Shown: piece by piece, positions 6,750 through 53,223 of the stretch
Numbering within the stretch: position 1 is the first letter of the stretch
Layout of the letters: each line of letters starts with the position of its first letter
Assembly: GCA_017608235.1 (NCBI GenBank)
Contig: JAFCGI010000002.1
Span: forward strand, 44,425 to 108,424
DNA from: Candidatus Pacearchaeota archaeon
GTDB lineage: Archaea > Nanobdellota > Nanobdellia > UBA10117 > JAFCGI01
Length of the DNA: 64,000 nt
Direction: 5' to 3'
Made by a program: the position numbers and the translations under genes
Notes under the pieces: model-generated
The model's database searches: none
The model's input: the letters and a program-made list of their open reading frames with translations, nothing else
Told to the model about the DNA's origin: nothing

Positions 6750-6837
6750 TGGACCGGTCGGGATTTGAACCCGAGGCCTCTTGCTTTTTCGACAAAATAT
6801 GCGAAGCAAGCGATCTACCGAACTGATCTACCAGCCC
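6750..6837 (-). tRNA. tRNA-Ala (anticodon CGC) with a 14-nt intron at 37/38
   Basis: Reverse complement folds as acceptor GGGCUGG/CCGGUCC+A with the alanine identity pair G3:U70, D arm GAUC-AGUUCGGUA-GAUC, anticodon stem CUUGC/GCAAG with loop UUCGCA[UAUUUUGUCGAAAA]A, and T arm UCGGG-UUCAAAU-CCCGA. Confidence 0.85.
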
Positions 6838-8126: not shown

Positions 8127-8657
8127 ATGAAAATATACAAACCAAGAGAAGATTCTAAACTTTTATTGGATTATCTAAACAAGATCTCTTGCTCTAACAA
8201 AACAATCCTAGAAATAGGAACTGGTTCAGGAATAATAGCTGAAACTGCCAAAAGTAAAGGGGCAAAAGTAATTGCCACAGACTTAAATCCAGATGCCTGT
8301 CTCTCTGCAAAATATAAAAACATAAAAACAATCTGCTCAGATCTTCTTAAAGGAATAAATCCAAAAAAGAAATTTGATATAATAATCTTTAATCCACCAT
8401 ACCTTCCAGAATCTCCAAACTCTAATGAAAACTTTCCAGATTTAGTAGGTGGAAAGAAAGGCTACGAGCTAACTCTAGAATTCATAAAGCAAGCAAAACC
8501 ACATCTAACCAATCATGGATTTATTCTTTTTATAGCATCCTCATTATCTAAACCAAAAGAACTTTTAGAAAAAATTAAAAAACTTAAACTCAAATCTCTA
8601 ATTCTAGAAACCCTAAACTTTGACTTTGAGTCTATTTTCTTAATCAAAGTTTGGTAG
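8127..8657 (+). CDS. N5-glutamine methyltransferase, HemK-related archaeal / Mtq2 type (release-factor GGQ methylase)
   Basis: 176 aa with the N-terminal IYKPREDSKLLLDYL signature of the Mtq2/HemK-rel-arch group, SAM-binding ILEIGTGSG and catalytic NPPY (IIFNPPYLP). Confidence 0.75.
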   Translation: MKIYKPREDSKLLLDYLNKISCSNKTILEIGTGSGIIAETAKSKGAKVIATDLNPDACLSAKYKNIKTICSDLLKGINPKKKFDIIIFNPPYLPESPNSNENFPDLVGGKKGYELTLEFIKQAKPHLTNHGFILFIASSLSKPKELLEKIKKLKLKSLILETLNFDFESIFLIKVW

Positions 8658-8692: not shown

Positions 8693-11062
8693 ATGGAAAA
8701 CATCAGCGGAAAGCAGAAATTTGCTTTACGAAAAACAATCAAAGAATTAGAAAACTATCGAGCTAGACATACTGAGCTCGTTTCTGTGTATATTCCTAAA
8801 GGTTATGCTATCATTAAAATTATTCAACAACTTCAGCAAGAACAAGGCACTGCTGAAAACATCAAGTCAAAAACCACTAAGAAAAATGTTATTAGCGCCT
8901 TGGAAAAGATGATTCAGCATCTCAGAATCTATAAAAAAACTCCTGAAAATGGTCTTGCAGTATTTTCAGGAAATGTCTCAGAAAGAGAAGGTGCTCAAGA
9001 CATAAGAGTTTGGGGAATAGAACCTCCAATGCCTCTAAACATACGTATGTATAAATGTGATCAAATATTCTATCTAGATCCACTAAAAGATATGTCCAAA
9101 CCAAAAACTGCATATGGTTTAATTGTAATGGACCGAAGAGAAGGTGACATAGCACTACTAAAAGGCAAAACTATAATCACATTATCAAGATTAAGGTCTG
9201 CTGTTCCTGGAAAATTTCGTGCAGGAGGTCAATGTTTAACTCAAGATTCTCTAGTACAAATGTCTAATGGAGATATAGTACAAATTAAAGATGTTCATAC
9301 AAATCTCAAATCTGCAGACTTTTTAAACTTTAAACACACAGATACAAAAACTATAGATAAATGGAAGACAGAAAAAAACAATATATATAAAATAATTACA
9401 AAAAATCCAAGGAACGAAATTATTTGTTCCAAAGATCACTTATTTTTTGTAAGAGAAGATAAAATCATACAAAAACCTGCTTCCGAATTAACCACTAAAG
9501 ACCATTTAATATTACCAGAAAAATTAGAAATATTTGGTAAAATTCAAAAAATTAAAACCTATTCTAATAAAAAAATAAAAACTCCTAAAATTCTAAACGA
9601 AGAATTAGCACAAATAGTAGGATATTATCTTAGTAAGGGAAATATCGATGATTCAAGAATATATTTTTCAGAAGGAAATAAAGAATTAGCAGAATACTAT
9701 CTCAATATATGCAAAAATCTATTCAGCGCAAATACAAATATAAGATTTAGAGAAAATAAAAAATATTATGAAATCAAAATATATAGCAGACCAATTGAAA
9801 AATTATTTAGAGAACAATTTCCAAAAAAACAAGGCATACCTACTAAAGTATTAAAATCTCCAAATAATGTCGTTGCTTCATTCTTAAAGGGGTTCTTTGA
9901 TGCCGAAGGATATGTTTCTAGCAGCAGAATAGCATTAGGTATAAATAATAAATTATTAGCAAAACAAATTCAACTTTTATTATTAAGATTTAGAATATTA
10001 GCATCACTTCAAGAATATAACAACAAAAGAAATCTGCATAGTAATAATCCTAGATATACTATAGTACTTTGTGGAAAAGAATCTTTCATTGAATTTCAAA
10101 AGAATATTGGTTTTTCCTTAATCAGTAAACAAAACAAATTACTAAACTTAATTAATAATAAAACAAACATTGATTACACAAGACAAATTTTAATCACAGG
10201 AAGAGAAATAAGAAAAATAATCGAAAATCATGGCTTTAAAATACATAAATTATTACCTAAGATTGCTCCAAGCGGTTTCTTTATAAATAAGAAGAACATG
10301 AGCAAACACATATTCAAAAAACAAATTCTTGATAAGGTACAAGAACATAAGCTCTTATATAAAGAACTCAAAAAAATATATAACAATCCATTTATTCCAG
10401 CTAAAATAAGTAAAATAGAAAAATACAATCAAAATACAAAAATGTTTGATATCTCTACAGAATCAGAAAATTTCATAGCAAATGGAATTTTTGTTCATAA
10501 TAGTGCAGCAAGATTCGCAAGAGTCAGAGAAAACCTAGCCAAAGATTTCTACAAAAAAATTGGCGAAGAAGCAAATAAAGAATTTGCAGAAGTAGAAGAA
10601 CTTCAAGGAATAATCATTGGCGGTCCAGGACCAACAAAAGAGGACTTTGCTCATGGAAACTTTCTAAGCACAAATATAAAAAAGAAAATCCTAGGTATAA
10701 AAAATATCTCATATACTGGAGAATTCGGACTAAAAGAGCTTGTAGATAAAAGTGAAGATCTCCTGGAAAAAGAAGATATTATTAAAGAAAAAAAGATTCT
10801 AAATAGACTATTTGAACTTCTAAGCACACAACCAAATCATGTATCTTATGGAAAAGAGGATATTAAAAAAGCCATAAAAATGGGTGCTGTTGACACACTA
10901 ATCATCTCAGAAAAGCTAGAAACCAAAGAAATAGAAGAACTAATTGATACTGCAGAAGAATTCGGTGGGGAAATAGAAATAGTCTCAGATGAAACTAGAG
11001 AAGGTGTCCAGCTATTAAGCATAGGTGGACTAGCAGCTATTCTAAGATATCCTATAACATAA
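8693..11062 (+). CDS. prf1: Peptide chain release factor aRF1, interrupted by an intein
   Basis: NIKS codon-recognition motif (TAENIKSKTTKKN); GGQ at codons 178-180 (nt 9224-9232); GGQ|intein|SAARFARVRE restores the conserved GGQSAxRFxR. The exteins total 366 aa. Confidence 0.9.
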   Translation: MENISGKQKFALRKTIKELENYRARHTELVSVYIPKGYAIIKIIQQLQQEQGTAENIKSKTTKKNVISALEKMIQHLRIYKKTPENGLAVFSGNVSEREGAQDIRVWGIEPPMPLNIRMYKCDQIFYLDPLKDMSKPKTAYGLIVMDRREGDIALLKGKTIITLSRLRSAVPGKFRAGGQCLTQDSLVQMSNGDIVQIKDVHTNLKSADFLNFKHTDTKTIDKWKTEKNNIYKIITKNPRNEIICSKDHLFFVREDKIIQKPASELTTKDHLILPEKLEIFGKIQKIKTYSNKKIKTPKILNEELAQIVGYYLSKGNIDDSRIYFSEGNKELAEYYLNICKNLFSANTNIRFRENKKYYEIKIYSRPIEKLFREQFPKKQGIPTKVLKSPNNVVASFLKGFFDAEGYVSSSRIALGINNKLLAKQIQLLLLRFRILASLQEYNNKRNLHSNNPRYTIVLCGKESFIEFQKNIGFSLISKQNKLLNLINNKTNIDYTRQILITGREIRKIIENHGFKIHKLLPKIAPSGFFINKKNMSKHIFKKQILDKVQEHKLLYKELKKIYNNPFIPAKISKIEKYNQNTKMFDISTESENFIANGIFVHNSAARFARVRENLAKDFYKKIGEEANKEFAEVEELQGIIIGGPGPTKEDFAHGNFLSTNIKKKILGIKNISYTGEFGLKELVDKSEDLLEKEDIIKEKKILNRLFELLSTQPNHVSYGKEDIKKAIKMGAVDTLIISEKLETKEIEELIDTAEEFGGEIEIVSDETREGVQLLSIGGLAAILRYPIT
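9233..10501 (+). mobile_element. Intein (423 codons) with a LAGLIDADG homing-endonuclease domain, inserted after GGQ of aRF1
   Basis: It starts with Cys (CLTQDSLVQM), has a block B-like SKDH and two LAGLIDADG-type motifs (LAQIVGYYLSKGNID; FLKGFFDAEGYVS), and ends ..NGIFVHN followed by the +1 Ser. Confidence 0.85.
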
Positions 11063-43133: not shown

Positions 43134-46100
43134 TTATTTTTTATTTTTTTTAGTAATTTTTTTCTTTCTTGTAATTCCTATAAATAAAACTGCAACTAGA
43201 ATAACAATCACTATGCTTACAAACGATAATAGATTAAGATCAAACAAACTAATAAACCCATCAAGAGTTTCTTCAGTTTCCTCTCCACCCAATATTAGTT
43301 TTTTATCAAGCTTAGGCAATACTACTAACTTTGTGGAATTAATTAAATCATCAGACACTTCTTTATTCACAGTATAAATTATTTCTTTATCAACTAAATC
43401 AGAAAAGCTCCATCTTACAACAGGATCATCCTTTACAATTTCATAATCTGCTGTCCTAAAGGTAATTTCACCAGCAGTGCTAGCAATATCTTTTGGTATT
43501 GTCTCCACTATATAGAGCTCTTCAGAAGAATCTAAACTGATAGTCTTCTTAAACATAGTTATTTTTCCTGTGTTTCCAGAAAGATATTTAACATCCAAAA
43601 CCTTAGTATTTACATCTACACTAACTTTATCTTTAAGCCTTGCAGCTTCAGAAACATAATTTTGTTTTTCAGAATCATCTAAACCATCTTTAACTACAAT
43701 ACTTTCAATAGATGCATCTATATCACTATCTTTCACACTCTGCGTAAATTCATCTGTAGAAATAATTTCTGCTTCAACAATTGTAGACTTCTTAATTTCT
43801 GTTAGTCTATTTTGTAACTTAGTAAATTCAAGTTCCTTTTTTGTATCAGAAATGCTTGAACCCTTCAAAGCTTTAAGCGCTGATTCAATAGATGCTATAT
43901 TAGTTTTAGTAAACTTAAGATCACCTTCTATATTCAAATCAGCAACTAAGTTTTTATCAATACTAGATACCTTAGTTAAATACTTATCTATATCATCTCC
44001 CAGATATTCAACACTAGTTATTTCATCATCAATTTCTTCTGTAACCGAAGAATCAGTAGTAGTTGTGCTAGGCGTAACAACTACATCATCCTCTGCAGTA
44101 GTAGTGGTGGTAGTACCTCCGCCACTATTACTAGACTCTTCCTCAATAGTTAGAGTAAAGGTTTCTGAATCAGTAGCACCATGATTATCCTGAACAGTTA
44201 TAGTTATAGAATAACTTCCCTCATCTGAACTATCAGGAGTAAACTCAATATTACCATTACCAGAATTTATATTAAACAAATTAGTATTATCTGAAAATGT
44301 TAAAGTATCTCCAGTAGGATCTGGATCAGTAGCACTAACATCTAAACTAAATTCTTCATTAACAGTTGCAGTTTGAGAACTAATACTACTTATTATAGGA
44401 GGATCATTCGTGTTATTAACATCTATATTCAAGTTCTTACTAACACTATTATAACCATCACTAACTGTAATATTAATAGTATTATTCCCCACATAATCAT
44501 TAGTAGGAGTCCAATTCAATAGCCCAGTACTTGAATTAATAATTCCTGAAATATTAGCACTATAAGTTAAGGTATCTGCATCATCATCACTAGCATTAAT
44601 ATCATACACTATAGCAGAATCCTCATTAACTGTCAGATTATCAAATGCATGACTAAAACTTGGTAGCCAAGGATCAACTACAATCAAAGTCCAAGATACT
44701 GAATCATTAAGACTTCCATCTGAAACTATCAATGTAACATTACGAGTTCCACCATTATGCAAACCAACATCATAAGTTAAATTTTGTTCTGTAGAATTAA
44801 GTTCACCCTCAAAATACCAATTATACAACAAAGTAACATTATCCACATCACTTGCACTTGCATTAAAGAATATTGTATTATTCTCTGTCAGATAAATGGT
44901 TTGATTCGTAGTACTGTTTATTGTAGAATTATCCCAATACCAAGAATCAATTACAGGCGCATCATTAGTATTTTCTATAGTAATAACAAATACCTCACTA
45001 ATATTCACATTACCATCTGTAATATTAATTCTAACTCCCAAACTTCCTACATCATCATTAGTTGGTGTCCAAGTAATAACTCCATTCGAACTAATATTAA
45101 ATTCTGAAACATTATCTAAAAATGTAATATTATCTCCATCAAGATCAGTAACATCTATATCATATGTAAACTCTTGATCTTCTATAGCAGTCTGATCTTG
45201 CAAAGCTGGATTAAAGAAAGGTGCATTATTTGGATCTGTTGAATTTAAAGTAATATCTCTTGTACTAGAAACTCCTAATTTTCCTTCTGTTCTATTTCCA
45301 ATAATTCTATATGTAAAATCTCCAGAAACATCTGTCTTATTAATATACCAATTTTTTAAACTAGAGTTACTCATACTTATATTAGTAGTGCCATCCCATT
45401 CTAACCAAGCTTCTCTTAGATCCCGATCACTCGTAATATTAACAAAAATCCAAGTAGTATTCAATTTACTTTTGTGTGAGGGTGTAGGACTAACAATCAT
45501 AATCTCTGGAGCAAATAAACCAAGAGTGGTTGCATTATCACTAGTCTGATTCAAATTTCCAGCATCATCTGCAGATTTCAAAGTTAAATTATATTCTGTA
45601 TCTGCACTAAGTCCTGTTGCATTATAATAACTAATATTACTTGTTAAATTAACCTTAAATACACTATTCAACCAAACCTCTGTATGATCAAAATCAGTTT
45701 CTGAAGGATTAGTCCAATTCCAATAAATCCAAGTTTCATCTTTTGAGAGTTCTGCTAAACCAGCAGCAGCTGAAGTAGGAGTATCATCTAAAAACTTTAT
45801 TGCTGCCAGAATATCTATTCTCGGAAATACTAGACTATTTTTAGAATCTGTAACATTAACACCTTTATTCTTAAGAACAGTTCTAATCTCTCCAGGGTCT
45901 ATAGTCACGCCTTCTAACCTCTCATGCTGGAAAATAAGTGCTGCAGCTCCTCCAACAAATGGAGCAGCCATAGAAGTTCCACTTCCAGACAAATATCCAG
46001 AACTATGACAATTAGTACATGATCCTGTTGGAACTGTTGAAACAACCTTGCATCCTGGTGCTAATAAATCTAAAATCTCATCACTATTTACAAAATTAGG

Positions 46101-47153
46101 TATATTATCTTCAGTAGTACCTTCAGAACCATCATCAACTGCACCAACAGAAGTAACATTAGCAAGACAGGCTGGATAACTTATACCATCATCAAAACCA
46201 CTATTACCAGATGAAGCCACAACAAAAATACCTGCAGCAGTTGCATTATTTATTGCGCTTGTTGTAGCAGAATATGTGCTTGCAGGACAACTAGAAAGAT
46301 TATGTTCTCCACTATCTCCTAAACTCATTACTATAACAGAAATATTAAACTTACTTGCATTATTCACACACCAATCTATTCCAGATGCTATATTTGAAAA
46401 ATCACCTCTTCCACTAGCATTAAGTGCTTTAATTGCTACAATCTTAGCATCAAATGCTATTCCTTTGTTATTACCAGATATTCCATTTCCAGCTGCAATC
46501 CCTGCAACATGAGTTCCATGTCCATCATCATCAAAAGGATTTGCATCTGGAGTTGTGCATCCTCCTCCATCACTTCCACAAAAATCATAACCACTTATAA
46601 CTTTAGAACAGTTACCAGCCAGAAATTCCTCTTCTGTACAAGAACCAAATTCAGTATGCGTATAGTCAATTCCACTATCTATAACACAAATAGTTTCTCC
46701 TGCCCCAGTAATATTTAAACCCTGAAGATTTCTAAGCCATACATCATCAGCATTAATTAGAGAATTTGCTTCTGCTCTATGAGCTACAGCAATCCCTGGT
46801 TTATATATTCTTAATACATTAGGATCATTAGCTAATTTAGCTAGTCCTTGCGCGCTAACTTTTCCACTAATAGCTTCTACATTAGAAAATTTATACTTTA
46901 ATTCAAAATCTTCTTCCATAAGATCTGAAAGAACATTCTCCTGCTTAACAGCAATAGATGTACTTGCTTCCGAACCACTAGATCCTGATCTTGTTCCACT
47001 AGTATCTTCCTTAAGCATAATAATAACATCTACCTTAGAATTCTTATCTAAATCCTCAAAAACATTATCATCTATACTTGCTGCTATCACTACTTGCAAG
47101 CTCACTAATAAAAAAACACTCATTAATATTAATAGTGTTATTCTCTTACTCAT
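43134..47153 (-). CDS. Membrane-anchored multidomain subtilisin-like serine protease (S8) with FN3, cadherin-like and PKD adhesion modules
   Basis: Signal peptide, I9-like propeptide, and catalytic triad D159 (VIDSGIDYTH), H212 (HGTHVAG) and S394 (SGTSMAAP). These are followed by an FN3-like module, three clear cadherin-like repeats (..ITWTPTNDDVG..NTNDAPVI) plus one degenerate segment, a PKD-like module, a poly-Thr linker, a C-terminal module, a TM helix and a KKKITKKNKK tail. Confidence 0.85.
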   Translation of the reverse strand: MSKRITLLILMSVFLLVSLQVVIAASIDDNVFEDLDKNSKVDVIIMLKEDTSGTRSGSSGSEASTSIAVKQENVLSDLMEEDFELKYKFSNVEAISGKVSAQGLAKLANDPNVLRIYKPGIAVAHRAEANSLINADDVWLRNLQGLNITGAGETICVIDSGIDYTHTEFGSCTEEEFLAGNCSKVISGYDFCGSDGGGCTTPDANPFDDDGHGTHVAGIAAGNGISGNNKGIAFDAKIVAIKALNASGRGDFSNIASGIDWCVNNASKFNISVIVMSLGDSGEHNLSSCPASTYSATTSAINNATAAGIFVVASSGNSGFDDGISYPACLANVTSVGAVDDGSEGTTEDNIPNFVNSDEILDLLAPGCKVVSTVPTGSCTNCHSSGYLSGSGTSMAAPFVGGAAALIFQHERLEGVTIDPGEIRTVLKNKGVNVTDSKNSLVFPRIDILAAIKFLDDTPTSAAAGLAELSKDETWIYWNWTNPSETDFDHTEVWLNSVFKVNLTSNISYYNATGLSADTEYNLTLKSADDAGNLNQTSDNATTLGLFAPEIMIVSPTPSHKSKLNTTWIFVNITSDRDLREAWLEWDGTTNISMSNSSLKNWYINKTDVSGDFTYRIIGNRTEGKLGVSSTRDITLNSTDPNNAPFFNPALQDQTAIEDQEFTYDIDVTDLDGDNITFLDNVSEFNISSNGVITWTPTNDDVGSLGVRINITDGNVNISEVFVITIENTNDAPVIDSWYWDNSTINSTTNQTIYLTENNTIFFNASASDVDNVTLLYNWYFEGELNSTEQNLTYDVGLHNGGTRNVTLIVSDGSLNDSVSWTLIVVDPWLPSFSHAFDNLTVNEDSAIVYDINASDDDADTLTYSANISGIINSSTGLLNWTPTNDYVGNNTINITVSDGYNSVSKNLNIDVNNTNDPPIISSISSQTATVNEEFSLDVSATDPDPTGDTLTFSDNTNLFNINSGNGNIEFTPDSSDEGSYSITITVQDNHGATDSETFTLTIEEESSNSGGGTTTTTTAEDDVVVTPSTTTTDSSVTEEIDDEITSVEYLGDDIDKYLTKVSSIDKNLVADLNIEGDLKFTKTNIASIESALKALKGSSISDTKKELEFTKLQNRLTEIKKSTIVEAEIISTDEFTQSVKDSDIDASIESIVVKDGLDDSEKQNYVSEAARLKDKVSVDVNTKVLDVKYLSGNTGKITMFKKTISLDSSEELYIVETIPKDIASTAGEITFRTADYEIVKDDPVVRWSFSDLVDKEIIYTVNKEVSDDLINSTKLVVLPKLDKKLILGGEETEETLDGFISLFDLNLLSFVSIVIVILVAVLFIGITRKKKITKKNKK

Positions 47154-48996: not shown

Positions 48997-51900
48997 CTAA
49001 TCACACCTTTGTCCAGTTAGTGTATCTGCTCTTTCCATTAGTACCCAATATCCTTCATACTCATCCATATTACTTCCAGAATCATCTTCATACTTGCTAG
49101 ATGCTTCTAAGTAATAATTTGCATTTGGAGGACTTGGACTCAATATCTTAGACAATCCCTTATAATCATTAGATTCTCCAGATACAACTTCAAGATCATC
49201 TAATGCAGTAGTCCATTTAGTACTAATATTTTCATTTAAACTTACTAAATTCCATCCACTTGTTAGACTTCTTGAAGGATATACACAATTTGGTCCTGGT
49301 GTAGCCTTCTTATAGAAGAATGCAAGCTCATCTGCTTCTGTTATATTTATGTAAATAGCTTCCAATGGATCTAATGTATAATTACTTGTTACCTGTACCC
49401 ATCCATTATCATATGTATACGCAATAGACCAATTCAACCCATCATAATATGCTATTACATCTGACCAAGTACTATTATCAAGCACTCTTGGCGTAGAAAT
49501 TAAATTCCATCCACTACTTAAATCTATATGCTCATCTGGTGCTCCTGTTGAAGTTACTGCTGCTGTTCCCACAGCATTACCTGCATAATCATAGAATTTA
49601 TTAGTTTGCGCACCTAGTGTTGCACTAAATGTTGCAAATCCATCTAAAGTATATACTAAAGTATCATTCGCACTAACTGTTGGATTTCCTGCAACTATTG
49701 ATGCACTACCACCAGCTCCATCAGTATAACTTACAAAGGTTTCATTTATAGTATTTCCAGCAGTTCCAGATCCATCTGAATTATATGTTTTAGTTCCAGA
49801 ATGCACTATATTCTCATTGAAAACCACCGTAACCAAGGTTCCATTTATTGTTACACTAGTTATATTTGGTCCAGTAATATCTATAGTTTGTGAATCTGCA
49901 TTTGTTACATTAGCATCTGTTGGTCCATCATTATTTGATGCTACAAAAACTCCTTCTTCTCCAGCATCATAATCTCCATCGCTGTCCGAATCTATCAAAA
50001 TTGGAATTTGGAACCTTAGAGTTGCACCATCAGTAACACCTGCACCAGTATCTACTGAAACAAATATTCTTAATCCAGATGCAGGAATTGCTTCTGATAG
50101 ACCAGTCCATATCCATCCATTTATTGATGCATCATATGATCCAGTTCCAGCACCTAATGCTGAATCATCTGATCCTGGTTCAAAAACACCATCACCATCA
50201 TCCACCCATGCTTTAACAGTCAATTCAGAACGATCTTGGTCGCCTATATTTTTTACAATAAATACATTCAGCTCATCTTCTGCTTTATCTGTTACATTTA
50301 CATTTGCACCAACATCATTATAGATATCTTCACTGCTATCAAACGTATCATCTTCACTATCATCTACATATTTATAGGTAGTAGGGAAATCACATAAAGT
50401 AGTTCCTGCAGAGATACTATCTCCACCATTTACAACTACAGTATCTGCAATATCTGAGTATGTTAACTCACCTACATGATTTTCTAAAATAATATCTTCT
50501 CCAGTATTCCAATCAGAATTTGTATTTACATCATAGAATACAAGATTTGTGGTATTATCTAATAATGTAATTGTATCTCCTGCACTCATACCACTACAAT
50601 CTACATCTAAACTATCTGCGTCTAGTTTAGTATCTGCTGCAGCACTCCATGTAAACTCTCCAGCATAATTCTCTGTAATAATATCTTCTCCATTATCCCA
50701 TTCATTATTTGAATTTTCATCATTATATACTAAATTTCCAGTACCATCTAATAAAGCTAAAGTTGCTCCATTACTTATTGCACCACCTTCATCTAATATT
50801 TTAGTATCCGCAGTTCCATCAGAATATGTTAAGCCTCCATCAACAACTTCTTTACAAACATCATTAGTTGCAACAAATACTCCAGTACTTGTATGTACTA
50901 ATGGACCATCTGCATTGTTTGCAGTTGTCCAATCTCCATCAAGATCTGCACTACCTGATAAAAATATCGTATCTGTTGACTCTAAAGTAGTGTCTGCATC
51001 TCCAGATGTTTCCTGAATTATTGCTTCTCCAGTTGAATAATCTCCATCATTATTATCATCTGAAAAAGCAAGTCTTCTATCATTACTGCTTGATCCTGCA
51101 GTAAAGTCTAATAGATCACAAGTTCCTGATGTTTCTACTGTATCTCCTGTATTTAATTGTCCAGCAGTTCCACTAACAATTATTGCTTCTGTATTATCAT
51201 ATGCATCATCATGATCGTTGTCACAATATACTGCACTACTATTTAATAAAACTGCATCAATAACATCCCAATCCCCTGTTGCTTTTTGTAATCCTTGTGC
51301 AGTTATTGGAACATTTGCATCATTTGCTAAAGAATTTCCATCTCCCAAATCAATTAGGATTTCATAATCAGTATATGAGCTATCATGATCTCCATCCAAA
51401 TATCCTACTTCAGCATCATTTTGTATTCCTAGACCTGAATCTCCTGCATTCAAAGCACCAGTTCCATCTACTAAAACTTCATCTGCCCCAGCAGAATATG
51501 TGCTACTGCCAGCTGTTTCTTCAATATATAAATCTTCTCCATTATCTAAAAGTCCATCTGCATCAGAATCTACAAAAGCCCATTTATTTGTAACTTTAGT
51601 AGTAGCAGCTGCACTTCCTAACAAATATGTACCATCATTACCACCGTTATCTGTACAATCTTGATTAAGATCTACTCTTATTGCAGTAGGATTACTTAAA
51701 TCATCAGTACATAAATACACTCCATCTGCTGCATCATTATCATCCCAATCAACTTTATTATCTCCCATGGAAACTAAAGCATCCCCTTCACTATGAGAAT
51801 CACAAGTACCTTTATTTGTACTTGTTGAACCATCACAATCTGCTTCTGCATCTGCTGCAGAAGTATATACACCATCTTCATCATCATCTATAAAAATATC

Positions 51901-53223
51901 ATCTGTTCCAGCATCATATTCATTACCGCCGTCAGAATCATCAAACAATATATCGTCTCCTGCTACAAAGTTTTGGAAATCTCCGTCTCCAGATTTTATT
52001 ATTGCACCATTTGAGCTATTCATAATCAGCTCACCATCATCATATGCTCCATTGTTGCTTGACCCACTTTCTATAGCAGCTATTTCATTCGCAAATACTT
52101 TTGTGTCTGCCTCTCCGCTTTTAACAATTTCTCCATCATCCAAGTTACTATCAGAAGAAATAATTATTGATTCTTCCACATCATATGTATCTATACTATG
52201 TGAGTTATGTGTATCAGAATATTTATGATCTGATTGACTAAAAAAGCTAACTAAATCTGCATTCCCATTTACTAACACAGTATCCCAATCATCTAAAGTT
52301 CCATTTGTAGAGTTTATTATTGCTTCTCCAGAATCATACTGGGAATCATGATCATCATCTATCCAATAAATATTTGTAAAGTCAGCACTTAATGCATCTC
52401 CATGGCTTGGAGAATCTGCACCATTATAATAAGAACAATCATCTGCACTTGCAGGCGTATATTTAGAATCATTATCCAAATCTAGAACAATTGCTTCTCC
52501 AGTAGCATACGCTTGATCTCCACCTTCAAGAGAAAGTGTTGGATATGTACTAGTTGGAGCTAAAGGATTTAAAACATCACCAGCAGATTTTGAATCATCT
52601 GCTCCTGGAGAACCAGATGCAGCAGTTGCAGTACCATCTGCATCTACAACTGTATCTGCAGCGCTAGTCCAAACATCATCTCCATCATCATCTATTAAAA
52701 TACAATCTGAATTAACAAATGTTGTATCTGCTCCATTTATAGCAATTCTTTGAGATGGATTCACTGGGAATATATTTAATGCATCTCCAGCACTATATGT
52801 ATCTGAAGACCCACCAGTATATAATACATTATCTGAAGCACTAGTATATACTCCATCATTATCATCATCTACTATAATATCTGAATTTCCTTCTACATAT
52901 CCTGCAGAACAATTACCATCTTGTCTAGCAAACGCCTCTGCATGAATATTACCTAAAGATAAAAATGAAATTAAATCATCCCCAGTCCAAGAGGAAGTAG
53001 CTCCATTATGTATAAGAACATCTGCAGCAGCGCTGCCTGTAGCATTAGGCAATACAATATTTAATACAATTTTATTTGTTTTACTTGCCCCGATAGTATA
53101 TGCACTAACATCTTCTTTAACAACATTTGAAGCCTGAAAAGCAAAAACAAAATTTCCAGAAAAAGCTAAAACCAAAACCATTAATATAGCTATTATAATT
53201 TTTTTGTTTGAAATATCAAACAC
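48997..53223 (-). CDS. Giant secreted acidic repeat protein with many EF-hand/dockerin-like DxDxD...E loops
   Basis: Signal peptide (M)FDISNKKIIIAILMVLVLAFSGNFVFAFQA. At least 9 twelve-residue loops have D/N at positions 1, 3 and 5, an aromatic residue at 8 and Glu at 12 (for example DDDHDSQYDSGE, DNDHDDAYDNTE, DSDSDGDYDAGE), and 4 further loops are of the DDDxDGxYTSA(S/A)D type. There is no C-terminal TM helix. The only start is a GTG inside GGAGGTG. Confidence 0.7.
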   Translation of the reverse strand: MFDISNKKIIIAILMVLVLAFSGNFVFAFQASNVVKEDVSAYTIGASKTNKIVLNIVLPNATGSAAADVLIHNGATSSWTGDDLISFLSLGNIHAEAFARQDGNCSAGYVEGNSDIIVDDDNDGVYTSASDNVLYTGGSSDTYSAGDALNIFPVNPSQRIAINGADTTFVNSDCILIDDDGDDVWTSAADTVVDADGTATAASGSPGADDSKSAGDVLNPLAPTSTYPTLSLEGGDQAYATGEAIVLDLDNDSKYTPASADDCSYYNGADSPSHGDALSADFTNIYWIDDDHDSQYDSGEAIINSTNGTLDDWDTVLVNGNADLVSFFSQSDHKYSDTHNSHSIDTYDVEESIIISSDSNLDDGEIVKSGEADTKVFANEIAAIESGSSNNGAYDDGELIMNSSNGAIIKSGDGDFQNFVAGDDILFDDSDGGNEYDAGTDDIFIDDDEDGVYTSAADAEADCDGSTSTNKGTCDSHSEGDALVSMGDNKVDWDDNDAADGVYLCTDDLSNPTAIRVDLNQDCTDNGGNDGTYLLGSAAATTKVTNKWAFVDSDADGLLDNGEDLYIEETAGSSTYSAGADEVLVDGTGALNAGDSGLGIQNDAEVGYLDGDHDSSYTDYEILIDLGDGNSLANDANVPITAQGLQKATGDWDVIDAVLLNSSAVYCDNDHDDAYDNTEAIIVSGTAGQLNTGDTVETSGTCDLLDFTAGSSSNDRRLAFSDDNNDGDYSTGEAIIQETSGDADTTLESTDTIFLSGSADLDGDWTTANNADGPLVHTSTGVFVATNDVCKEVVDGGLTYSDGTADTKILDEGGAISNGATLALLDGTGNLVYNDENSNNEWDNGEDIITENYAGEFTWSAAADTKLDADSLDVDCSGMSAGDTITLLDNTTNLVFYDVNTNSDWNTGEDIILENHVGELTYSDIADTVVVNGGDSISAGTTLCDFPTTYKYVDDSEDDTFDSSEDIYNDVGANVNVTDKAEDELNVFIVKNIGDQDRSELTVKAWVDDGDGVFEPGSDDSALGAGTGSYDASINGWIWTGLSEAIPASGLRIFVSVDTGAGVTDGATLRFQIPILIDSDSDGDYDAGEEGVFVASNNDGPTDANVTNADSQTIDITGPNITSVTINGTLVTVVFNENIVHSGTKTYNSDGSGTAGNTINETFVSYTDGAGGSASIVAGNPTVSANDTLVYTLDGFATFSATLGAQTNKFYDYAGNAVGTAAVTSTGAPDEHIDLSSGWNLISTPRVLDNSTWSDVIAYYDGLNWSIAYTYDNGWVQVTSNYTLDPLEAIYINITEADELAFFYKKATPGPNCVYPSRSLTSGWNLVSLNENISTKWTTALDDLEVVSGESNDYKGLSKILSPSPPNANYYLEASSKYEDDSGSNMDEYEGYWVLMERADTLTGQRCD

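Follow-up and report, generated by a model that had tools for sequence, protein, structure and literature searches.

A class 1 intein in the GGQ loop of the archaeal release factor aRF1, probably with a point-inactivated homing endonuclease

The DNA analyzed here is a stretch of 64,000 nucleotides, hereafter the window, from a Candidatus Pacearchaeota archaeon (GenBank assembly GCA_017608235.1, contig JAFCGI010000002.1, positions 44,425 to 108,424 of the forward strand). Its + strand carries, at 8693-11062, an open reading frame (ORF) whose window translation is a release factor aRF1 of 789 amino acids (aa) interrupted by an intein (Table 1). The whole protein matches the NCBIfam profile hidden Markov model (HMM) TIGR03676 aRF1_eRF1 with 406.5 bits (E 1.1e-121, cut-off 234.7), as well as Pfam eRF1_1, eRF1_2 and eRF1_3, thereby displaying the three-domain architecture of eRF1. 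The decoding and hydrolysis motifs are readily found in the translation, namely ENIKSK (NIKS), YKCDQIF (YxCxxxF), and an AGGQ that the intein separates from SAARF. The N-extein encompasses the N domain, with NIKS and YxCxxxF, and the start of the M domain up to VPGKFRAGGQ, with Gln180 as the -1 residue. The C-extein opens with the Ser+1 of the conserved SAxRFxR (here SAARFARVRE) and covers the remainder of the M domain and the C domain.

The precursor was searched against 5.8 billion protein clusters, yielding 869 matches at E<=1e-10, the best 120 of which were aligned with MAFFT, anchored on the query; these are the homologues, or relatives, counted out of 120 below. Gly178, Gly179 and Gln180 on one side of the insertion, and Ser604 and Arg607 on the other, are kept in 120/120. 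Conceptual splicing yields an aRF1 of 366 aa that aligns with Halobacterium aRF1 (4af1, E 2.6e-71), Aeropyrum aRF1 (3agk) and human eRF1 (1dt9). None of these alignments has a gap through GGQSAxRFxR, the motif that removal of the insert had been predicted to restore, and intein-free orthologues read GGQSA or GGQSS at the joined site.

Table 1. Features of the aRF1 locus and its intein, in window coordinates
Feature	Coordinates	Strand	Basis
HemK2/MTQ2-family methyltransferase	8127..8657	+	TIGR00537 hemK_rel_arch, 128.3 bits (cut-off 87); NPPY motif
N-extein of aRF1, residues 1-180	8693..9232	+	eRF1_1 PF03463, E 2.5e-16; TIGR03676, residues 9-181
Intein, 423 aa, class 1 type, nested double-motif LAGLIDADG endonuclease domain	9233..10501	+	PF14890, PF14528, TIGR01445, TIGR01443; PDB and Foldseek matches
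Cys1 codon, block A nucleophile (Cys181 of precursor)	9233..9235	+	Cys in 120/120 homologues
Block B, C-S-K-D-H (S/T-x-x-H motif)	9425..9439	+	Ser246 and His249 in 120/120; Asp248 in 114/120
LAGLIDADG motif 1 (block C), LAQIVGYYLSKGNID	9605..9649	+	Ser-Lys codons 9632-9637; Gly-Asp in relatives
LAGLIDADG motif 2 (block E), FLKGFFDAEGYV	9881..9916	+	Catalytic Glu405 intact; D403, A404 and G406 invariant
Blocks F and G, C-terminal splicing region, MFDISTESENFIANGIFVHN	10442..10501	+	TIGR01443; Asp586, Phe594, His602 and Asn603 in 120/120
C-extein of aRF1, residues 604-789, stop codon included	10502..11062	+	eRF1_2 PF03464, eRF1_3 PF03465
Joined (intein-less) site, 60 bp: GTTCCTGGAAAATTTCGTGCAGGAGGTCAA followed by AGTGCAGCAAGATTCGCAAGAGTCAGAGAA			

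The insert corresponds to precursor residues 181-603. Translation confirmed what a preliminary description of this DNA had reported: 423 codons without a stop, beginning with CLTQDSLV, ending with NGIFVHN, and bounded as GKFRAGGQ/CLTQDSLV and NGIFVHN/SAARFARVRE, hence GGQ/C at one end and HN/S at the other. The motifs quoted in that description also lie where it placed them, namely CSKDH, LAQIVGYYLSKGNID, FLKGFFDAEGYVS, and the terminal HN followed by Ser. Taken alone, the insert scored above cut-off in the intein and LAGLIDADG HMM search that had been proposed for it, matching Intein_splicing (PF14890; E 8.3e-21, 74.8 bits, cut-off 35.8), LAGLIDADG_3 (PF14528; E 5.7e-17, 62.2 bits, cut-off 22.5), intein_Nterm (TIGR01445; 24.9 bits, cut-off 24.5) and intein_Cterm (TIGR01443; 22.0 bits, cut-off 15.6). 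Without exception, the 120 homologues conserve GGQ, Cys1, Ser and His in block B, Asp in block F, Phe594, the His-Asn terminus and Ser+1; the splicing-block residues and the Cys1/HN/Ser+1 boundaries, whose absence would have spoken against an intein, are thus all present. A Cys immediately precedes block B in the window copy and in 23/120 relatives.

The precursor was modelled with AlphaFold2 from an alignment of 60 sequences; the model has a mean pLDDT of 89.8, with values below 70 in three 10-residue blocks, of which two lie at the junctions (171-180 and 601-610) and one in the endonuclease domain (441-450). When compared with the PDB by Foldseek, the model matched the TliVMA intein (7qss; E 1.9e-25, TM 0.74) and the homing-endonuclease inteins PI-PfuI (1dq3), PI-PkoII (2cw7) and PI-SceI (1ef0/1vde), and its release-factor half matched aRF1/eRF1 structures (4af1, 3agk, and 5lzt with TM 0.74). 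PDB sequence matches of the intein were the VMA inteins 7qsu/7qss/7qst, PI-PfuI 1dq3 and PI-PkoII 2cw7. Double-motif LAGLIDADG endonucleases adopt a pseudo-symmetric alpha-beta-beta-alpha-beta-beta-alpha fold, in which the metal-binding acidic residues are placed at the C-terminal ends of the two LAGLIDADG helices. In the model these are helices 303-315 and 391-405, each followed by beta-strands, and Lys315 and Glu405 form their respective C-terminal ends.

Since the insert displays every sequence and structural hallmark of inteins, it belongs to this family, and the combination of motifs and profile matches brings the resemblance far beyond chance. Profile matches, invariance, predicted fold, restored host and the intein-free alleles of the nearest relatives all bear out the claim that a full-size LAGLIDADG intein lies exactly between the Gln of GGQ and the following Ser of aRF1. 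On sequence and predicted fold, it is confirmed as a genuine canonical LAGLIDADG intein, which would be expected to splice.

The inteins TliVMA, PI-PfuI, PI-PkoII and PI-SceI, which are the best structural matches (7qss, 1dq3, 2cw7 and 1ef0) as well as the best PDB sequence matches, resemble the aRF1 intein in having a Hint splicing domain into which a double-motif LAGLIDADG endonuclease is inserted, and in sharing Cys1, the block B His, the block F Asp and the terminal His-Asn. They differ by their hosts, V-ATPase, ribonucleotide reductase and DNA polymerase instead of the GGQ loop of aRF1, and by an identity of only ~12-22% over the structural alignment. Moreover, most aRF1 inteins carry an extra HTH_3 domain compared with TliVMA-type inteins, whereas the window copy lacks it. 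The closest relatives outside aRF1 are inteins of RadA, MCM, GlmS, terminase and a beta-CASP RNase in uncultured archaea, with 27-33% identity over most of the intein. These also combine PF14890 with PF14528, some with an internal HTH_3, but interrupt classical replication, repair and metabolism hosts. Among the closest known systems is also the aIF2/IF-2 (aIF5B) intein, listed in intein surveys (PMC4760082), which likewise resides in an essential archaeal translation factor. NCBIfam PRK14845 (intein-containing IF-2) is among the best matches of the intein region (E 2.3e-16); its host is a GTPase with a P-loop and not a release factor.

The preliminary description had left room for an active homing endonuclease since the reading frame contains no internal stop. 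This suggestion was not supported: the motif 1 that it quoted (YYLSKGN) has Lys at a position occupied by Asp in 119/120 homologues. The end of this motif reads G-D-G in the same 119 sequences, with Gly314 and Asp315, and S-K-G in the window copy alone. The corresponding DNA (9632-9637) is AGT AAG in the window and GGA GAT in the nearest relative, at locus L003, the two states being three substitutions apart. In an alignment with the solved TliVMA variant 7qsu, the ADG of the latter faces the SKG of the window. The acidic residue of motif 2 is kept in 120/120 (E in 114, D in 6). Thus, although the family fold is present, an acidic residue ends only the second of the two helices.

Substitution of Asp218 or Asp326 of PI-SceI abolishes cleavage and preserves DNA binding. 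Blocks C and E are known to carry the catalytic Asp residues, and the PhoVMA intein of P. horikoshii, which lacks catalytic Asp, was inactive in vitro and could be reactivated by grafting Asp back (PMC8966425). With Lys in place of the catalytic Asp of motif 1, the endonuclease of the window copy is probably dead and its splicing should be intact; we consider that it is very probably unable to make a double-strand break. PhoVMA is similar to the window copy in that it is full-size, expected to splice, and still folded as an endonuclease in spite of the loss of one or more catalytic acidic residues. It differs in missing active-site residues in both blocks and in a deletion in block E, whereas the window copy has lost only the block C Asp, now a Lys, and has no deletion; inactivity was measured for PhoVMA and is inferred for the aRF1 intein. 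With one block hit and no deletion, the window copy would represent an earlier stage of decay than PhoVMA. It looks like a recent point inactivation, at an early post-fixation stage of endonuclease decay in which splicing has been retained.

A general decay of the endonuclease domain was also considered and rejected, since the extein and the splicing domain diverge too: deviations at conserved columns amount to 6/62 in the endonuclease domain, 4/34 in the splicing domain and 7/105 in the extein. As divergence is general in this lineage, the active-site change is the sole diagnostic one. Conversely, one could argue that the endonuclease has kept its activity, whether it cuts both strands or at least nicks one, and that the element is mobile at present. 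In favor of this view, the ORF is intact, 56 of the 62 endonuclease-domain columns that are at least 90% conserved are retained, with only four deviations beyond the Ser-Lys change, the Glu of motif 2 is present, the modelled fold is confident, and the family as a whole bears signs of recent horizontal movement. Nevertheless, we regard an active enzyme as unlikely: the metal-binding Asp that ends helix 1 in 119/120 relatives is precisely the residue replaced by Lys, PI-SceI loses cleavage upon substitution of Asp218 or Asp326, and the cleavage activity of PhoVMA was lost with these Asp residues and regained on their restoration (PMC8966425).

The intein of the window is one member of a family that is large in DPANN archaea, in sequences from Woesearchaeota/Nanoarchaeota and also from Aenigmarchaeota. 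The best 120 homologues, 43-58% identical to the query, all combine the eRF1 domains with PF14890 and PF14528 at the same site and, where the source is named, originate from metagenome-assembled genomes of Woesearchaeota/Nanoarchaeota. The element is abundant, being present in ~60 of the best 150 representatives of clusters at 50% identity, and in all of the top 120 clusters at 90% identity. A search with the spliced extein returned, as its best 120 matches, only intein-free aRF1 proteins (363-444 aa, 57-64% identity by BLASTP) from the same phyla. The intein-free alleles that the preliminary description had suggested looking for among relatives therefore exist, and the exteins nearest to that of the window (62-64% in the alignment) are all intein-free. 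One such empty allele, L004, has the order aRF1 then aIF5A in common with the window, and its uninterrupted site encodes the identical peptide PGKFRAGGQSAARFARVRE with 46/60 identical nucleotides. When genome contigs were scanned with the whole precursor, only two weak C-extein matches were obtained, on contigs of Pacearchaeota and Promethearchaeota.

Several lines of evidence speak to the mobility of this family. A neighbour-joining tree was computed from the exteins of 120 carriers and 120 intein-free proteins, and 35 state changes are required on it to account for intein presence, compared with 69-80 for shuffled labels; carriers thus cluster, but a single origin is far from sufficient to explain them. 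The intein nearest to that of the window, P0002, is 65% identical to it, while its host extein is only 49% identical, which places this pair 3.2 standard deviations against the trend and in the top 0.4% of 7140 pairs. Over these pairs, the mean similarity of inteins lies 7 points below that of their exteins, with 84 pairs above +10 points. Besides full-size elements, the same aRF1 site is occupied by a 271-aa intein from which most of the endonuclease has been deleted (P0284), and by a 134-aa mini-intein (P0484). Internal architecture varies too. Between the N-terminal splicing region and motif 1, after intein residue ~110, 87/120 homologues (P0003, P0008 and others) carry an XRE-type HTH_3 domain (PF01381) of ~70-85 aa, which is missing from the window copy and from 32 other homologues; its presence changes state about 6 times on the intein tree, and an internal HTH_3 is also found in related MCM inteins. 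This is the position where other inteins hold accessory DNA-binding domains. Taken together, empty alleles, the coexistence of full, truncated and mini-inteins, and the incongruence between inteins and exteins suggest that the family spreads, or has spread, by endonuclease-mediated homing. The stages observed would be those of a homing cycle, which runs from invasion and fixation to endonuclease decay and then loss, the evidence being indirect and at the level of the family. Given its abundance, the aRF1 intein offers a natural data set in which every stage of this cycle can be followed at one site.

Base composition was considered as a separate indicator of origin. The intein has a G+C content of 24.4%, compared with 34.6% for the extein and 32.6 +/- 2.2% (minimum 27.6%) for 32 long ORFs of the window. 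A recent foreign origin was rejected as the explanation, since the GC3 of the intein (16.3%) falls within the range of the window ORFs (19.8 +/- 4.1%), and the low G+C is therefore mostly a matter of amino-acid composition.

How would such a precursor give rise to a functional release factor? The insertion is in frame between Gln180 and Ser181 (mature numbering), within the GGQSAxRF loop responsible for peptidyl-tRNA hydrolysis. The 789-aa precursor would be translated, and the carbonyl of Gln180 would be attacked by Cys1 in an N-S acyl shift at Gln180-Cys181. Trans-esterification would then move the resulting thioester onto the hydroxyl of Ser+1, the Ser that the host motif itself conserves. 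Cyclisation of Asn423, aided by the penultimate His, would free the intein, and an O-N shift would restore the native Gln-Ser bond, yielding a normal aRF1 of 366 aa. These steps are taken from established intein chemistry, and the residues and the fold that they require were observed here. The use of the host's own invariant Ser as the +1 nucleophile helps to explain the stability of the site. Solved structures of eRF1 and aRF1 show that the M domain reaches into the peptidyl-transferase center with its tip, formed by the GGQ loop. In the unspliced precursor, a 49-kDa domain at this tip should abolish peptide release; with the GGQ tip blocked, active aRF1 could be obtained from the gene of the window only through splicing. 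A dependence of translation termination on splicing is plausible, since the window has no second aRF1-like ORF.

Upstream of aRF1, 35 nt away and on the same strand, lies the methyltransferase gene of Table 1, outside the intein, whose product also matches PrmC (TIGR03534) more weakly. In eukaryotes, enzymes of the HemK2/MTQ2 family N5-methylate the Gln of the eRF1 GGQ motif. The presumed substrate of the enzyme, the GGQ Gln, is the -1 residue of the intein. Adjacency of the methyltransferase and aRF1 genes was not seen at loci L003 and L004. Downstream of aRF1, the window carries the gene coding for aIF5A.

We hold with high confidence that the element is a class 1 intein in the GGQ loop of aRF1, belonging to a homing family, and that the endonuclease of this copy has very probably been inactivated by point mutation. 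Some considerations weigh against this view. Splicing, the inactivity of the precursor and that of the endonuclease are all inferences. The analysis covers 64 kb of the genome, and a second, uninterrupted aRF1 gene might lie elsewhere. The Asp-to-Lys call comes from a single assembled sequence, and no public sequencing runs containing the gene were found that could lend it read support. In addition, the window protein is mildly divergent throughout, with no clear excess of decay in the endonuclease domain, and sampling for the extein and intein trees, which are simple neighbour-joining distance trees, is biased toward the query. Finally, some engineered LAGLIDADG variants are nickases, and the window copy could have a residual nicking activity.

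An intein at a catalytic tip could also have been retained as a conditional splicing switch, responding for example to redox state or temperature through Cys1, that would tune the amount of active release factor; in such a scheme, the precursor, as long as it is unspliced, might occupy stop codons and fail to release the peptide. The location of the insertion implies that precursor and product must differ in activity, which is circumstantial support. The window copy combines a damaged endonuclease with splicing residues that never vary, and the Cys just before block B in this copy and in 23/120 relatives points in the same direction. Conditional splicing has been documented in other archaeal inteins such as that of RadA (PMC5790916, PMC11409957). 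Yet intein-free alleles are common among the closest relatives, so that the element is dispensable to the host; its distribution is as expected of a selfish homing cycle; and no sensor feature was identified. We therefore find a switch improbable.

A more specific form of regulation can be envisioned, in which the DPANN aRF1 intein, more than a parasite, would gate termination capacity post-translationally while unspliced molecules compete for stop codons. This idea stems from the position of the intein on the catalytic Gln, which is also the presumed methylation target of the upstream MTQ2-type enzyme, and from the intact N domain of the precursor, the domain that reads stop codons. If correct, this gating role would be the reason for keeping copies such as that of the window, whose endonuclease is dead and whose splicing residues are invariant. 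It is speculative, and we grant it a small probability. As for a non-splicing lineage-specific domain, or a dead gene copy disrupted by a mobile element, the support for splicing comes from residues and fold and the analysis covered part of the genome, but the hypothesis is hardly credible given that no catalytic splicing residue is missing or varies among 120 relatives, that the aRF1 equivalog model gives the exteins 406 bits, that these retain NIKS, YxCxxxF and GGQ, that a permanent 423-aa domain on the GGQ tip is incompatible with entry into the peptidyl-transferase center, and that the window contains no other aRF1-like ORF. A search of the 64-kb window with an extein HMM found no second aRF1- or pelota-like ORF, and an HMM of the intein family detected no second copy of the intein.

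Inteins target the most conserved catalytic motifs of essential proteins. In the aRF1 case, the element sits one peptide bond away from a universally conserved catalytic Gln and uses the next conserved Ser as its own +1 nucleophile, thereby providing a ready-made test of the behavior on the ribosome of an aRF1 with a blocked GGQ loop. What is new is the combination of host and site, the intein itself being of a textbook type, and the aRF1 intein family is apparently undescribed: no intein in a release factor (aRF1/eRF1) was found in the open-access full-text literature, and a targeted reading of intein surveys and reviews found no release factor among the hosts (PMC4760082, PMC5784728, PMC5874633, PMC10710043). 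The first of these states that core translation components contain few inteins (PMC4760082). The literature searched thus agrees with the preliminary description, which did not count aRF1/eRF1 among the classical intein hosts; databases hold well over a hundred such alleles. Some copies bear the automatic JGI name 'peptide subunit release factor 1 (eRF1)/intein/homing endonuclease'. Under NCBI naming, P0008, P0013, P0019, P0025 and others are called 'helix-turn-helix domain-containing protein' or 'LAGLIDADG family homing endonuclease', so that aRF1 may be scored as missing in such genomes. No 'exception' model for intein-containing aRF1 was found among the NCBIfam matches, unlike for GyrA and RtcB.

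Searching with the intein only also brought to light hosts whose motif departs from GGQ, with GGW/C, GGF/C, GGM/C or GGS/C in place of GGQ/C. The GGF/C, GGM/C and GGS/C hosts, which are aRF1-like and represented by P0244, P0270, P0272, P0273, P0287, P0297, P0301, P0319, P0321 and P0336, resume with HN/SQxRY. Among those checked, most keep NIKS; P0244, P0273, P0319 and P0336 gave no NIKS/NIKD match, and at least two of these four seem to be truncated at the N terminus. Among the best 120 relatives of one GGW extein (P0396-P0515), 118 are intein-free GGW proteins (85 GGWSQ, 33 GGWSA); the other two are the GGW/C mini-intein form P0484 and one GGQ protein. Where the source names them, GGW proteins are aRF-1 of Aenigmarchaeota, and GGW aRF1 sequences score 463-477 bits on the TIGR03676 aRF1 equivalog model. 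One GGW gene could be inspected at the DNA level (L005, 4001-5218, on the 1.1-Mb contig_22876 of ena:ERZ25039515), and its codon is a genuine TGG, so that an artefact of gene calling with TGA read as Trp was rejected. This gene lies ~0.6 kb from a ribosomal-protein block (L3, S11, S4, S13), with one PAP2-family gene in between. No literature on GGW release factors was found in open-access full text. The existence of whole DPANN lineages with GGW, GGF, GGM or GGS instead of GGQ may matter more than the intein itself.

Two further observations concern other parts of the window. A 1407-aa ORF (48997-53223, - strand), with no Pfam match at E<=0.001, lies near a 1338-aa subtilase/Ig-domain surface protein (43134-47153). 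In addition to the tRNA genes reported by ARAGORN, Rfam identified two more on the - strand, at 2073-2183 (111 nt) and 6750-6837 (88 nt), which are probably intron-containing archaeal tRNAs.

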